This document shows positions 47,500-54,880 of a DNA stretch of 64,000 nucleotides, one piece after another. The notes under the pieces were generated by a model, which was not told where the DNA came from, made no database searches, and saw only the letters and a program-made list of their open reading frames with translations. This DNA comes from Dictyostelium discoideum (lineage: Eukaryota): contig CM000154.2 in NCBI GenBank assembly GCA_000004695.1, forward strand, positions 320,001 through 384,000, read 5' to 3'. A program made the translations under genes and the position numbers. The number at the start of each line of letters is the position of its first letter. Position 1 is the first letter of the stretch.

Positions 47500-49556
<2,057 letters not shown>

Positions 49557-49680
49557 ATAAATAATAATAATAATAAATAAATAATAAATAATAATAATAA
49601 ATAATAAACAATAAATAAATTCAATTTTTATTCTTTAATACTTTTTTATTTTTATTTTATTTATTACTATTTATATTATT

Positions 49681-49717
<37 letters not shown>

Positions 49718-49724
<7 letters not shown>

Positions 49725-51186
49725 GAAAGTGAAATTGATTGAACTCTAATAATATCACTATTTGAATCATCATAACCAGATAGAGTAATAGCATAGAATT
49801 CATTTCTATAGAATCTTTGAAGTGGAACGCTAATTGTATTGTATGAATCACCATCATCAATAAATGATGAATCAATGTATGGTTCTAATGAAATTGAGAG
49901 TGGAATTTTTTCACCTTTGGTTAAGAGGTTAACTTGAGTATTTGAAATGATTTCTTTAAAACCTAAAATGTTGATGTTGAGGGTTCTTTTGCCTTTACTT
50001 GATAAACAATTGGATCCAGTTGCACATTTAAAGAATAAAACATTTCCAAGTATTGGTCTAGTTTCATAATATTCAACCTCCTTCTTTGAATATGGACCCC
50101 AACTTGCACTTGAGAATTCTCTTTCCAATTTACCATCTCTCATAATATATTGGAAAATGGTTGATTTATGTTTTCTGGACTCTTCTGCTGCAGCTTTTCT
50201 CTCTATATCACGTTGCATTTGTTCTCTTTCTTTTTCTCTTTGCAATTCAAGATACTCATCATTTTGTCTCTTTCTTCTTATGGCTTGTTCTTCTTGATCT
50301 CTTTGTCTTTCTTCTCTTTGAAGTTCTTCACGAGATGGTCTTTGTGGGTATTCTTCTCGAGATGGTCTTTGTGGTTCATGGTAATGATATGCACCTCCAC
50401 TGGAAATCATTATATCAGCACATGTTAAATAATATTCCTTTGGATTAAACTCCCAGAAAAATTGAAGAATATATAAACCTGGAGAAATATCCATTGGTAA
50501 ATCAAAACATGCAGTACATGTTGCATTATTTGTATTTTCATAATATTTTGTACAGTTTCCAAATGGGCTTGAATGGATTGAATTTTGGAAGAATACATCT
50601 TGACTTGGATCTGCGGGCTAATTTTTAAAAATTAAAAAAAAAAAAGAATTTTAAATAATCAATAAATGTAAAAATTAATAATTAAAATAATAATAAAAAT
50701 AAACATACAGCATCTGATGTCATTTTTGGAGAAAGGTAGAAACTAACGGTACCAGCTCTTAATGCAGTCGCATGGTTTCTTGCTGGCCATTGTGGGCAAA
50801 TCTTTTGACCTAATTAAAATAAAAAGAAAATTCAAAAAAAAGTAAGTAAAAAGTTTTTTAAAAAAAAAAAAAATTAAAAAATTATATATACCAGCTTGGA
50901 AATTTCCCATTGGATGTTTTGAACTATAAAGATTGGTAATTGAAGAACTTCTTCTTTGTGCTGGGCCACATGATTGACCCAATTCAGTTGGGTATGGTTT
51001 TGTGAATTTACCTCTTTGGAATAAGAAACCATCGCCTTGTTGTTCATAAAATCTATAGTTTCTTGGGTATGCTGCACATGAATTTGAACCAAAATCCCAA
51101 TCCACACATTTCATAAATGAATGTGATTCAATTTTACCAAATAATAATACAAGTAGTACTGTTAAAAATAATATTATTTTTTTCAT
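49718..51186 (-). CDS. Secreted His-brace LPMO-like (AA10/AA15-type copper monooxygenase-like) domain fused to a long ER/K-rich helix and an unknown C-terminal domain, 3 exons: join(complement 50892..51186, 50709..50809, 49718..50617); about 431 aa
   Basis: Exon 1 MKKIILFLTVLLVLLFGKIES | HSFMKCVDWDFGSNSCAAYPRNY...SSKHPMGNFQAG: a signal peptide, with predicted cleavage leaving His as mature residue 1, and a second His about 75 residues later. A GTATAT donor leads to exon 2 GQKICPQWPARNHATALRAGTVSFYLSPKMTSDA, then a GTATGT donor and acceptor TTAG lead to exon 3 PADPSQDVFF...CFDLPMDISPGLYILQFFWEFNPKEYYLTCADIMISSGGAYHYHE. The motif GLYILQFFWE...EYYLTCADI resembles the AA10 C-terminal strand ([24 protein letters not shown]) and AA9 (NYVLRHE...NYPQCINLQVTGGG), with Glu in the AA10/AA15 position. 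Then comes PQRPSREEYPQRPSREELQREERQRDQEEQAIRRKRQNDEYLELQREKEREQMQRDIERKAAAEESRKHK (an ER/K single-alpha-helix-like stretch) and a roughly 140-aa C-terminal domain of unknown type. ORF-track 50743..51186 and 49718..50494 are exon pieces. Confidence 0.55.
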
Positions 51187-51876
51187 TTTAAAAAAAATAT
51201 TTAAAACAATAAAAAAAAAGATTTTAACTATTATTAACTAATAAAAAAAATATAAAAAAAATAATTAAAAAAAAAAAAAATAATAATAATAATAATTAAA
51301 TCTCGGTTTATTTTTTTAAAGAAAAAATAAAATTTGTAGATTTCATTAAAAAATAATTAAAGAAAGATTGTTAAAAAAAAAAAGAAAAAAAAACCATTAT
51401 ATTTGGTGATTGTATAAATCCATTGGGGGTATTAATATATTTTTAATATAAAAAATAATAATAAATAAATAATATAAAAATAAACACATTAAGCAATAGC
51501 ATAGCAGAAATGTGTTAAATAAAAACCCCAAAATACCAATATTTACCCCAAAATTATCATTTTACCACTACATTATTTGAACATAAAAAAAAAAAAAAAA
51601 TAGTGGCACTTTCATATTAAAACAGATAATATAATAAAATAGTTTTTTTTATTAAAATTTAAAATAATTTTTTTATAATAGAATTAAAGAATGAAACATT
51701 AATAATTTTTTTAAAAAGATAAGATCTTTTTATTTGTTCAAAAATATTTTATGATTTTTATTATTTGAGGTGATCCTTTGTTTTCAGTATTGATAAAAAT
51801 TCATTTTCATTAAGGATGTGATGCCTCCTTATAATTTTATTTTTTCTCCTATTAAAATATTCAATGTAACCATTCC

Positions 51877-51921
<45 letters not shown>

Positions 51922-52455
51922 AAAAATTAATTAAGAATTTAATTAATTGGCTCCATTTATACCCAAGTGGGCTTTAAATCTGTTTTTTAAAGTTTTATAT
52001 AAATATGATTTTCTTTTTTTTTTTTTTTTCATTATTATTATTAATTATTTTTAATATAATAAATTGTTTTTTTTTTTTTTTAATCTAAAAATAAAATTTT
52101 GTTTAGGGCTTTTATTATAATAAAATAATACCCCTTTTACCATTTTCTTATTTTAAATATGTCCTGATTGGGCAATTTTCATTTTTGGCTTTTGGATTTT
52201 ACCAAATATAGTAAAAATTTCTTTTTTTTTTAATTTCAAATAATTTAAAATTGAAAAATGATTGAGTACAAACAGAGTAAACTTTTTTTAAAAAAAAATG
52301 ATTATAATAATCATCATCAAAAAGCAAAAGTAAGAAAAAATAAAGAAAGAAATAACAAATAGAAAAAAAAAGTAAATCTCTCTAACAATTAAAAAGAATT
52401 AGATAAATAGTTTTTTCCCAAATAAAAATGGTTTACATTCAATTATAATCTAGAT

Positions 52456-52587
<132 letters not shown>

Positions 52588-52596
52588 TATAATAAT

Positions 52597-52800
52597 ATGA
52601 ATCAATACCAATCAAATGATAGAGAAAGGAAAGATTTATCTATGCACTATATCAAAAAGAAAGGTTGATGATCATCATATAAATATTTTATTCTAAAGTA
52701 ATATATGAATCAATACTAATCAAATGTCAGAGAAAGGAAAGATTTTTCTATGCACTATGGCATTTTGAAAAGAAGATGATATCATTTATAAAAAAAAAAA
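52597..52800. repeat. Imperfect tandem duplication, two units of about 105 nt
   Basis: Unit A atgaatcaataccaatcaaatgatagagaaaggaaagatttatctatgcactat... (from 52597) and unit B atgaatcaatactaatcaaatgtcagagaaaggaaagatttttctatgcactat... (from 52705). About 85% identity over the first 55 nt, then diverging. Confidence 0.7.
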
Positions 52801-53467
52801 ATTAGAAACCAAAAAACTAAAAATAAATTAAAAAAAAAAAAAGCTTTAATAAAATATATTTTTTTTTTTTTTTCATTATTGTTTTAATTAATAGAAAAAA
52901 ACTATTTCCTTTTAATTCTATTATTAATAAAAAACTAAATGGTTTTTTATTATCTTTTTCATAATAAAATTAAAATTGACCTATTGTAAGTTGGTCACTA
53001 TTATTTTATATAAAAATAGATTTTTTTTTTAAATAAAAAAAAAAATAGATTTGATTTGTTTGTGGTGAAAATATTATTTAAATTAAATTATTTATTAGAT
53101 TTAAATATATCATCGTCACCATTTTTATATTCACCACCAAAATAATAATCTTTCTTTCTTGGTTGAGAAACAACATGAACCAAAAAACCAATGGCGAGTT
53201 ATGATACGAATCCTGGATTGACAACAAATATTAACTCATTTTTAAAAAGAAACCAATAAATTATGAAACTTTAAAAATTAATTTATGTTTGATAAAAAAA
53301 AGAATTTAAATTTTTTACTTTTTTTTTTGGTGTTTAAAAAAATAAAAAAAAATAAAAAAAAATAAAAAAATATTAACAGGAACATCATTTTTAAAATTAA
53401 TATATTTAAAAATTTAAAAGTATGTATTAATTTTAAAAAAAAAGGAAAAAAAAAGTAGTAATTAATT

Positions 53468-53507
<40 letters not shown>

Positions 53508-53591
53508 CCCTCACCCAATTTTTTATTTTATTTTCGAAAAGTTTCACACATGCACAGATTTCAATACCAATAATAAAAAAAAGATGAAATA

Positions 53592-54255
53592 ATGGATAAA
53601 ACTATTATAAATAAAAGCAATAAAATGAAAACTTCTTCCACTTCCTCTACTTCTTCTACTTCCACTTCTTCTACTTCTTCCCTTTTAAATCAACAACCAA
53701 CACAAGATACACATAAATTAAATAATAAAAATTTTAAAACGAATCAAAGGAAAAAAATTGAAGAAGAGTTGATCGAGCATAATAAACTAAATAACATGTT
53801 AAAAGATATATCCAAAAAGTATGAACATAAAATTCAAATTAAACAAGAATCAATTGTTACCATTGAAAAGGTTGTCCAATCATTTGTAAAGGTGATTTTA
53901 AAGAAAACAAACATTGATAATAACACTTTGCAAATCACTGAAATTTATAAAACTTTAATCGACTTAGATTTAGAATTTTTGTTACCAATTCGTGGTGTTA
54001 CAATAAAATCGTATGTATTTTTATATATATATATATATATATAAACATAAAACATTCTCATTTTAATGCGAGTAATTTTACTTTATTTTTTTTTTTTTTT
54101 TTTTCCCTCTCCTAAAGAAATACAAGAAAACCATCAATGAATAAATTTCTTTTAGCAGATAGTGATAAAAATTTTGAGGAGAAACCTCAACAACAACAAC
54201 GACAGCAACAACAACAACAACAACAACCACAACTGCTGCAACAACTGCAACAACG

Positions 54256-54328
<73 letters not shown>

Positions 54329-54438
54329 CTGCAAATGCAAATACAACAACATCAACATCGACAAATGCAAATACAACAACAACATCGACAAATGCAACTA
54401 CATCAACAAATGCAACAACAACAACAACTACAACAACT

Positions 54439-54507
<69 letters not shown>

Positions 54508-54649
54508 GATGCAAATACAACTGCAATTACAACATCAACCTCTAAACCACCAATATTATAATCTCCAAATGCAACAAAGTTGTGAACAAAATAATATCAT
54601 TAATAGTTTTAATGATTATAATAATATCAATAACAATAACAATAATAAC

Positions 54650-54738
<89 letters not shown>

Positions 54739-54880
54739 TAACCAACCTACACCATCTATATATAATCAAGATAATATAAACAATAGTTTTAATAATATAA
54801 TATTTAACACTGAAAATAACTTTTTCGAATTGGAAGACAATTTCAACCCTGAAAATTTTTTGGAATTCGAAAATATTTAA
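53592..54880 (+). CDS. Gln/Asn-rich nuclear-type protein, 2 exons: join(53592..54010, 54118..54880)
   Basis: Exon 1 MDKTIINKSNKMKTSSTSSTSSTSTSS...IEKVVQSFVKVILKKTNIDNNTLQITEIYKTLIDLDLEFLLPIRGVTIK ends at a GTATGT donor at 54011. A 107-nt intron with (TA)n and poly-T ends CCTAAAG at 54117. Exon 2 SNTRKPSMNKFLLADSDKNFEEKPQQQQRQQQQQQQQPQLL...(Q)n...(N)n...FELEDNFNPENFLEFENI. The 350-nt (CAA)n/(CAG) tract generates spurious overlapping ORFs on both strands (54152..54397-, 54162..54545+, 54542..54769-, 54582..54779+). Confidence 0.6.

Follow-up and report, generated by a model that had tools for sequence, protein, structure and literature searches.

Does the social amoeba Dictyostelium discoideum encode a secreted lytic polysaccharide monooxygenase (LPMO)? 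The question is raised by one gene, DDB_G0287529, lying on the minus strand of a stretch of 64,000 nucleotides of the genome of this organism (contig CM000154.2, positions 320,001 to 384,000 of the forward strand; hereafter the window), in which an earlier note, made from the sequence alone, had recognised three exons coding for one protein with a secreted, LPMO-like histidine-brace domain. According to the analysis reported here, the product of this gene is rather likely to be a secreted carbohydrate-active protein in three parts, i.e., a copper-brace LPMO domain, a linker, and a targeting module related to the carbohydrate-binding modules (CBMs) of family 8 (CBM8), which would oxidise a polysaccharide. 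The elements of the gene and of its product are the following (aa, amino acids; UTR, untranslated region):

51186..50892, minus strand: exon 1, 295 nt, with the ATG at 51186..51184; codes for aa 1-98 and contains base 1 of codon 99.
50891..50810, minus strand: intron 1, 82 nt, GT..AG, AT-rich.
50809..50709, minus strand: exon 2, 101 nt; codes for aa 99-132 and holds the WPARNHA motif.
50708..50618, minus strand: intron 2, 91 nt, GT..AG, AT-rich.
50617..49718, minus strand: exon 3, 900 nt; codes for aa 133-431, with the TAA stop codon at 49720..49718.
51124..51186, minus strand: predicted signal peptide, aa 1-21, MKKIILFLTVLLVLLFGKIES, with a hydrophobic core, Ile at -3, and Ser at -1.
50393..51123, minus strand: predicted LPMO-fold His-brace domain, aa 22-207; both introns lie inside it.
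51121..51123, minus strand: His22 codon (CAT), predicted mature residue 1 and brace ligand 1.
50772..50774, minus strand: His111 codon (CAT), mature His90, within WPA[K/R]NHA; predicted brace ligand 2.
50429..50437, minus strand: codons of Glu193-Tyr194-Tyr195; Glu193 is the predicted second-sphere residue and Tyr195 the predicted axial one.
50156..50392, minus strand: low-complexity linker, aa 208-286, in which an ER/K-rich segment comes after two PQRPSREE repeats.
50171..50332, minus strand: predicted continuous alpha-helix, aa 228-281, 54 residues.
49721..50155, minus strand: CBM8-like C-terminal module, aa 287-431; Cys330 and Cys336 are invariant, and Trp305 corresponds to W574 of DdCBM8.
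49684..49717, minus strand: run of 34 A (coding strand) immediately next to the stop codon, at the start of the 3' UTR.

The spliced coding sequence, encoded by three exons on the minus strand, is 1296 nt long and is translated into 431 aa. From an exact-sequence look-up, this product resulted identical at every residue to XP_637170.1 (EAL63664.1, UniRef100_Q54K85) of D. discoideum AX4; since the identity extends throughout, the gene model proposed in the earlier note is the reference annotation, and the claim of three exons coding for one protein, the public Q54K85, is confirmed. The same product is named "hypothetical protein" by NCBI and, automatically, "Chitin-binding type-4 domain-containing protein" by UniProt.

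The fold of the N-terminal domain was modelled with AlphaFold2. Using an alignment of 149 homologous sequences, aa 22-205 obtained values of the predicted local distance difference test (pLDDT) mostly above 90, except for the loop 58-68, whereas the model from the single sequence had a mean pLDDT of 43.9 and was useless for both globular domains. The domain was modelled as a beta-sandwich of the immunoglobulin/fibronectin-like type that is common to the auxiliary activity (AA) families AA9-AA17, and all 27 matches retrieved by Foldseek from the PDB at E ≤1e-3 are LPMOs (AA9, AA10, AA11, and AA15). The structure-comparison scores were 12.3 for ScLPMO10C, 11.9 for TdAA15A, 11.4 for Fusolin, 11.1 for AoAA11, 10.8 for an AA9, 10.6 for AA13, 8.9 for LaX325, 8.1 for an AA16-like protein, and 7.7, below the cut, for AA14. 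On the predicted structure, the assignment of the domain to the LPMO fold is secure; no assignment to a non-LPMO fold arose, and the interpretation of a secreted LPMO-like brace domain is supported. Since the scores to five families are moderate and roughly equal, the domain would represent a separate lineage in the superfamily; its clade is about equally distant from AA9, AA10, AA11, AA13, and AA15 and, by the tests run, is a member of none of them.

At the sequence level, the search of the PDB with the single sequence retrieved as best matches two AA11 LPMOs (E 0.4-1, over the terminal motif). The family profile retrieved AoAA11 (4mah, 3e-8), AfAA11B (9exj, 5e-8), the AA11 protein 7p3u (1e-6), and AA9 proteins from 2e-3, and 15 of the 16 PDB matches listed for it are LPMOs. 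The AA10/LPMO_10 model, from which the UniProt name "Chitin-binding type-4" derives, was not significantly matched by the query (five out of 127 homologues match it, the best with E 1.5e-5), and no sequence similarity to domains of the TdAA15A type was found. NCBIfam holds no family for the protein. A word-indexed homologue search with the N-domain or the C-domain alone retrieved nothing at E ≤0.01; it likewise missed the protein's own 98%-identical cluster and thus carries no weight.

An LPMO of this kind would need a histidine as its first mature residue, and the earlier note had indeed proposed a cleavable signal peptide exposing it. In the 109 homologues starting with Met, the prepeptide preceding the aligned histidine has a median length of 20 aa and a hydrophobic core in 105 cases; position -1 is occupied by Ala, Ser, or Gly in 102 of them and position -3 by a small or aliphatic residue in 108. 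The cleavage context of the query (…LLFGKIES/HSF, the slash marking the predicted cut), with Ile at -3 and Ser at -1 before His22, fits the classic (-3,-1) pattern. The pattern in the homologues gives strong comparative support to a cleavage directly before His22, which would become mature residue 1, in agreement with what had been proposed. A deposited model of the same protein from a D. discoideum isolate (KAM9969342.1) has an N-terminus that is 38 residues longer and non-homologous (MSCPSRFRIITRHW…); such an extension would bury both the signal peptide and His1, and it probably represents a mis-predicted start or first exon.

The conservation of the putative brace residues was read from the 149-sequence alignment. 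His22 is a histidine in 115 out of 119 aligned homologues, and the neighbouring Ser23 and Cys27 are conserved in 114 and 118 of the 119, respectively. His111, embedded in the WPA[K/R]NHA motif (QWPARNHA in the query), is a histidine in 145 out of 147 homologues; an alignment with TtAA10A (6rw7), non-significant at E 0.12, sets it near an AA10 histidine. A second histidine had been placed about 75 residues into the mature protein: a conserved one does exist, its position being mature 90 instead. His91 (mature position 70) was also considered as the second brace ligand and was rejected, being replaced by Tyr or Phe in most homologues. Tyr195 is conserved in 141 out of 146 homologues, Trp187 in 144 out of 146, and Cys198 in 141 out of 145, while position 193 is Glu in 87 out of 145 and Gln, Ser, Asp, or Thr elsewhere. 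In a trimmed alignment of 27 domain sequences, mature His1, Ser2, His90, and Tyr174 are invariant, as are five of the eight Cys that the domain contains. The C-terminal motif GLYILQFFWEFNPKEYYLTCADIMISSGG is present exactly as it had been quoted; the likeness of this terminal strand to the Glu/aromatic motif of AA10 and AA9 was borne out, in that HMMER sets E193-x-Y195 on E138-M-Y140 of AoAA11, which we take to be the second-sphere Glu and the axial Tyr of that enzyme.

A second paralogue of Acytostelium subglobosum (XP_012755651.1, 638 aa) has Asn in the place of His1 (…LTMA/NYMDC…) and misses the entire WPARNHA segment. Still present are the terminal WFWEY..QDYYMTCADI strand and the CBM8-like module, joined by a linker of more than 300 residues; either the protein is a pseudo-LPMO that lacks the brace, or its gene model is wrong (a missing exon).

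To retrieve the homologues, 1.84 billion cluster representatives were scanned in full with HMMER; the profile was built from five near-identical Dictyostelium orthologues. The family comprises 283 representatives at E ≤1e-3 and 95 at E ≤1e-10, nearly all of them aligned over profile positions ~7-209, and its named members are all annotated as "hypothetical protein". Among dictyostelids it was found in D. discoideum, D. firmibasis, D. citrinum, D. dimigraforme, Tieghemostelium lacteum, Cavenderia fasciculata, Heterostelium album, and A. subglobosum; the other members belong to the fungi Mortierella and Dissophora, to the ichthyosporean Chromosphaera perkinsii, and to marine eukaryotes (MMETSP, EukProt, and Tara data). 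The Pfam family DUF7492 (PF24320) is matched by 65 out of 127 homologues at E ≤0.01 (best E 5.8e-17), AA9 by 13, and LPMO_10 by the five mentioned above; in many metagenomic relatives DUF7492 is the sole precomputed Pfam domain. Moreover, some relatives carry a glycoside hydrolase family 5 (GH5) cellulase domain, CBM1, CBM2, or CBM18, and these partners indicate polysaccharide targets.

Two further features were observed in the family. A strongly hydrophobic 19-mer is present downstream of the LPMO-like domain in 33 out of 108 protist homologues, and a WW domain is found at the end of eight out of 127 homologues, in several of which it is preceded by a hydrophobic segment. If the LPMO-type part were an ectodomain held by a membrane anchor, with the WW domain across the membrane, the arrangement would be an odd one, reminiscent of signalling proteins.

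The C-terminal domain (aa 287-431, about 145 aa) was described in the earlier note as a domain of about 140 aa without any recognised motif. The domain is there, and alone it has no match in the Pfam library; it is nevertheless not of an unknown type, since both a profile search and hhalign relate it to CBM8. Among PDB entries, the profile of seven dictyostelid C-domains has a single convincing match, DdCBM8 (7t7y/7t7z), with E 1e-7 over 143 out of 154 residues (hmmsearch); hhalign gives a probability of 95.2% and E 2.7e-8 over 129 columns, and pairwise BLASTP gives E 0.003, with an identity of ~15-24%. Moreover, DdCBM8 and every one of the dictyostelid modules share Cys330, Cys336, and two Gly without exception. 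DdCBM8 is the C-terminal family 8 module of CelA, an endoglucanase (GH9) of D. discoideum; its ligands are insoluble cellulose and soluble glucomannan, the latter being bound more tightly, and its binding platform is formed by W572, W574, Y600, and Q686 (PMC9079177). The profile comparisons show homology between the C-domain and DdCBM8 at the level of sequence; the module appears to be a relative of CBM8 that has diverged, and it may bind a ligand other than that of DdCBM8.

Several results weigh against a polysaccharide-oxidising LPMO equipped with a CBM8-related module. In the N-domain, no Pfam LPMO model matches either the protein or the domain, even with E values up to 10. The sequence similarity to solved LPMOs does not extend beyond the C-terminal 40-50 residues of the domain: the significant AA11 matches (3e-8) cover positions 169-221 of the 307 of the profile, i.e., the C-terminal strands only, so that similarity to AA11 over the whole domain was not found. 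With DUF7492, the query reaches 12.7 bits against a gathering threshold of 27 (E 0.072, profile positions 181-239 only), and it thus falls formally outside this family as modelled. As for the C-domain, of the four residues of the DdCBM8 platform only W574 is kept (Trp305, which is Trp or Tyr in the orthologues), while W572, Y600, and Q686 are replaced by Ala, Gly, and Ser, respectively, which makes cellulose binding by this module uncertain. Finally, the all-beta model obtained with AlphaFold2 for the C-domain is of low confidence, with a pLDDT of 30-70, owing to the small number of sequences (about six) that cover it. Taking into account the fold, the conserved brace, and these points together, we consider the protein, as judged from its sequence, to be probably an enzyme that oxidises polysaccharides, from a branch of the LPMO superfamily not yet characterised.

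The way in which such an enzyme would work can be depicted as follows. Signal peptidase would remove 21 residues, leaving His22 at the N-terminus; the amino group and the side chain of His22 would, together with His111, bind copper in a histidine brace located on the flat face of the beta-sandwich, with Tyr195 as the axial residue of the putative copper site and Glu193 as the second-sphere one. Once reduced, the copper site would react with O2 or H2O2, and glycosidic bonds would be oxidised and cleaved, while the CBM8-like module would tether the enzyme to the polysaccharide. The least certain step is the substrate, which would most likely be cellulose or a related beta-glycan of the organism's own stalk, spore coat, or slime sheath. 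A wider proposal can be formulated, to which we give low confidence: the clade defined by the motifs HS[WF]..C, WPA[K/R]NHA, and WEFN.GE.Y..C would be an active LPMO family not yet in CAZy, shared by dictyostelids and marine protists with ichthyosporeans and early-diverging fungi, whose Dictyostelium member, targeted by the CBM8-like module and kept at a fixed distance by an extracellular ER/K helix, would oxidatively remodel the organism's own cellulose while stalk, sheath, or spore coat is formed. The identity of the glycan with the organism's own cellulose, together with a helix that sets a fixed working distance, is the most speculative part of this picture.

The polymer attacked might instead be external. 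A catalytic LPMO acting on prey or environmental polymers (fungal or yeast chitin or glucan, bacterial exopolysaccharide, glucomannan or hemicellulose of plant litter) would serve feeding and not morphogenesis, and we regard this as possible, if on the unlikely side. It would agree with the automatic UniProt name "chitin-binding type-4", with the nearest solved sequence relatives being chitin-active AA11 enzymes, and with the occurrence of the family in organisms not known for cellulose walls, such as the Mortierella-type fungi and the ichthyosporean. On the other hand, the sequence holds nothing specific to chitin, the sole characterised homologue of the C-module is a cellulose-binding domain from a Dictyostelium cellulase, and the gene has been kept in all the dictyostelid lineages sampled; dictyostelids make cellulose stalks and spore walls. 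The module itself can be read in both ways: it lacks three of the four ligand-binding residues of DdCBM8, for which reason its specificity has probably shifted, and DdCBM8 prefers glucomannan over crystalline cellulose (PMC9079177).

A second question concerns the segment connecting the two domains, for which the earlier note had proposed a stretch of about 70 residues rich in E, R, K, and Q, forming a rigid single helix. The composition of aa 214-286 (E 22%, R 21%, Q 14%, K 7%) agrees with this description, and AlphaFold2 predicts one uninterrupted helix at aa 228-281 with pLDDT ~84-96, whether or not the alignment is supplied; if straight, its 54 residues would span ~8 nm (1.5 A per residue). 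The segment might also be a flexible polyampholyte linker, or a coiled-coil dimerisation element, rather than a rigid single-helix stalk, a view that we hold to be somewhat doubtful. The helix prediction speaks against flexibility, as do the balance of charges (25% acidic and 25% basic residues) and the opposite-charge pairs, 13 at i+4 and 13 at i+3, although the confidence of AlphaFold2 in a helix is no proof of its stability in solution. The coiled coil was rejected: hydrophobic residues occupy at most 27% of the a/d positions in any heptad register, that is, the hydrophobic seam is absent. On prediction, an ER/K-type single alpha-helix thus describes the segment better than a coiled coil does. 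For their part, C-terminal extensions of a disordered, polyampholytic kind are widespread in LPMOs (PMC8615602), which would suit a flexible linker.

The comparison of the orthologues does not extend the helical character to the whole family. The ER/K-type linker is found only in the D. discoideum group, where D. firmibasis and D. citrinum keep it; that of T. lacteum is likewise rich in E, Q, K, and R, a further point against mere flexibility. In C. fasciculata, H. album, and A. subglobosum, Pro makes up 12-15% of the linker: the first consists of (Y)QAPQQQ repeats (40% Gln, 12% Pro), and the other two are Pro-rich. The helical character is thus not conserved among the orthologues, and this variation of linker type, which would not be expected if rigidity were essential to the function of the family, favours the flexible linker. 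Since other dictyostelids use Pro/Gln-rich linkers, the function of the segment is probably spacing and not rigidity as such; what appears to be conserved is a spacer, and not a rigid helix. Of the earlier description, composition and predicted helix stand, while the rigid design turned out to be lineage-specific and not a trait of the family. In D. discoideum and its close relatives, the two domains would be set ~8 nm apart by the ER/K helix of about 54 residues.

A third alternative concerns the activity itself. The N-domain might be an LPMO-like copper protein which is not a polysaccharide oxidase (a scavenger, a chaperone, or a redox partner, like X325/Bim1 or the poorly active AA16), the CBM8-like module being merely a matrix anchor. 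We consider this improbable. The lower structure-comparison score of LaX325 with respect to the catalytic families, and the presence of a Glu-x-Tyr motif of the catalytic type, set the domain apart from X325.

Lastly, that the N-domain and the C-terminal parts belong to separate genes or to an annotation chimera is effectively excluded, because everything from aa 133 to the stop codon sits in a single exon, whose unbroken 900-nt open reading frame (ORF) starts inside the N-domain, 75 residues before its end, and runs on through the E/R/K/Q segment and the C-domain, so that the fusion is no splicing artefact, and because the order N-domain, linker, C-domain is repeated in six other dictyostelid species (D. 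firmibasis, D. citrinum, T. lacteum, C. fasciculata, H. album, and A. subglobosum) and an independently assembled Logan contig has a 258-aa ORF across the junction. The search for the same fusion in other dictyostelids, which the earlier note had suggested, found it in at least five further proteins, as expected for one gene and not for two.

Regarding the surroundings of the gene, the locus is made of AT-rich DNA of the Dictyostelium type, with a GC content of 25-35% in the exons and 5-15% in the flanks and introns. Within the 64-kb window, tblastn did not retrieve any paralogue of DDB_G0287529, and no tRNA or Rfam family was found; a scan for promoters and terminators of the bacterial type is uninformative at a eukaryotic AT-rich locus. 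Upstream of the start codon, positions 51187-53590 (about 2.4 kb, GC 11-19%) contain no ORF of at least 90 aa and represent a large intergenic or promoter region by the standards of this compact genome. Downstream, the T34 run on the plus strand at 49684-49717, i.e., the A34 of the coding strand, is a genomic poly(A) tract opening the 3' UTR, which could mislead oligo-dT-primed cDNA synthesis or the mapping of poly(A) sites. A long and near-perfect (AAT)n microsatellite (49430-49612, plus strand, GC 5%) adjoins the 3' end of the gene and, on the plus strand, represents the poly-Asn tail closing an ORF at 49326..49553; the latter is convergent with the LPMO-like gene, and the two stop codons lie about 165 bp apart. 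Another ORF of 247 aa (54137-54880, plus strand), consisting almost entirely of poly-Gln and poly-Asn, is an example of typical Dictyostelium low complexity and is unrelated to the LPMO-like gene.

LPMOs are best known from the degradation of biomass by fungi and bacteria, while their roles in the organism that produces them (wall remodelling, development, copper handling) are largely open. Here, an LPMO-fold domain with a complete predicted brace is found in a haploid, easily knocked-out model organism that makes and shapes its own cellulose, and it is coupled to a module related to the cellulose-binding domain of the same organism. If active, the enzyme would found a new auxiliary-activity family, widespread in protists, would provide a function for DUF7492, and would offer a direct genetic test of the part played by LPMOs in building, and not only destroying, a cellulose matrix. 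Should the organism's own cellulose be the substrate, this would be the first genetically tractable LPMO with a developmental, non-digestive role on self-made cellulose. The ER/K linker, in turn, would be one of the few candidate single-alpha-helix spacers to lie outside the cell. If inactive, the protein would be one more uncharacterised LPMO-like protein already flagged automatically by databases. In the literature library searched, no paper was retrieved on DDB_G0287529, on DUF7492, or on any LPMO from Dictyostelium or Amoebozoa, in line with the earlier note, which was aware of no copper oxidative polysaccharide enzyme described in social amoebae; the call as an LPMO-type protein is, for its part, not new to databases, since it is already implied by the automatic UniProt name.

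How, then, does this protein compare with known systems? The earlier note had regarded an extracellular enzyme on a helical stalk as an unusual design. Since the C-domain is CBM8-like, the overall architecture is, on the contrary, the standard one of LPMO, linker, and CBM, of which ScLPMO10C with its CBM2 is a known example; the differences lie in the uncharacterised, DUF7492-like catalytic clade, in the rare module of CBM8 type, and in the ER/K helix which, in D. discoideum, serves as the linker. ScLPMO10C (CelS2, 4oy7) for AA10 and TdAA15A (5msz) for AA15, with the scores of 12.3 and 11.9 given above, are among the closest known systems. AA18, which the literature mentions as a recent family, is bacterial and unrelated.

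With respect to AA11 (AoAA11, 4mah/4mai; AfAA11B, 9exj/9hdg; 7p3u), whose members are fungal and chitin-active, the likeness is confined to the C-terminal strands already described, and neither the N-terminal motif HS[WF]..C.D.. nor the motif WPA[K/R]NHA of the second histidine is AA11-like. The second histidine of AoAA11 is presumably at about mature position 60, compared with mature position 90 in the N-domain. Proteins of the X325/Bim1 type (LaX325, 6ibh) score lower than the catalytic families; unlike them, the protein analysed here has kept the Glu-x-Tyr motif and has a CBM-like module attached, whereas X325 proteins are anchored through glycosylphosphatidylinositol. Among the existing database families, the one with the largest overlap with the N-domain clade is DUF7492, the function of which is unassigned.

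The C-module shares with DdCBM8 the organism, the C-terminal place, a low-complexity linker ahead of it, the Cys pair, and one aromatic residue; the partner of DdCBM8 is a GH9 domain, while the module analysed here is joined to a domain of the LPMO type. The linker, finally, resembles the ER/K single-alpha-helix domains in being E/R/K-rich, in its many opposite charges at i/i+4, in the lack of a hydrophobic seam, and in the single long helix predicted for it. The classical domains of this kind (myosin VI/X, caldesmon) are intracellular; the segment of DDB_G0287529 differs from them in being predicted to be extracellular, Gln-rich (14%), and not conserved among the orthologues.

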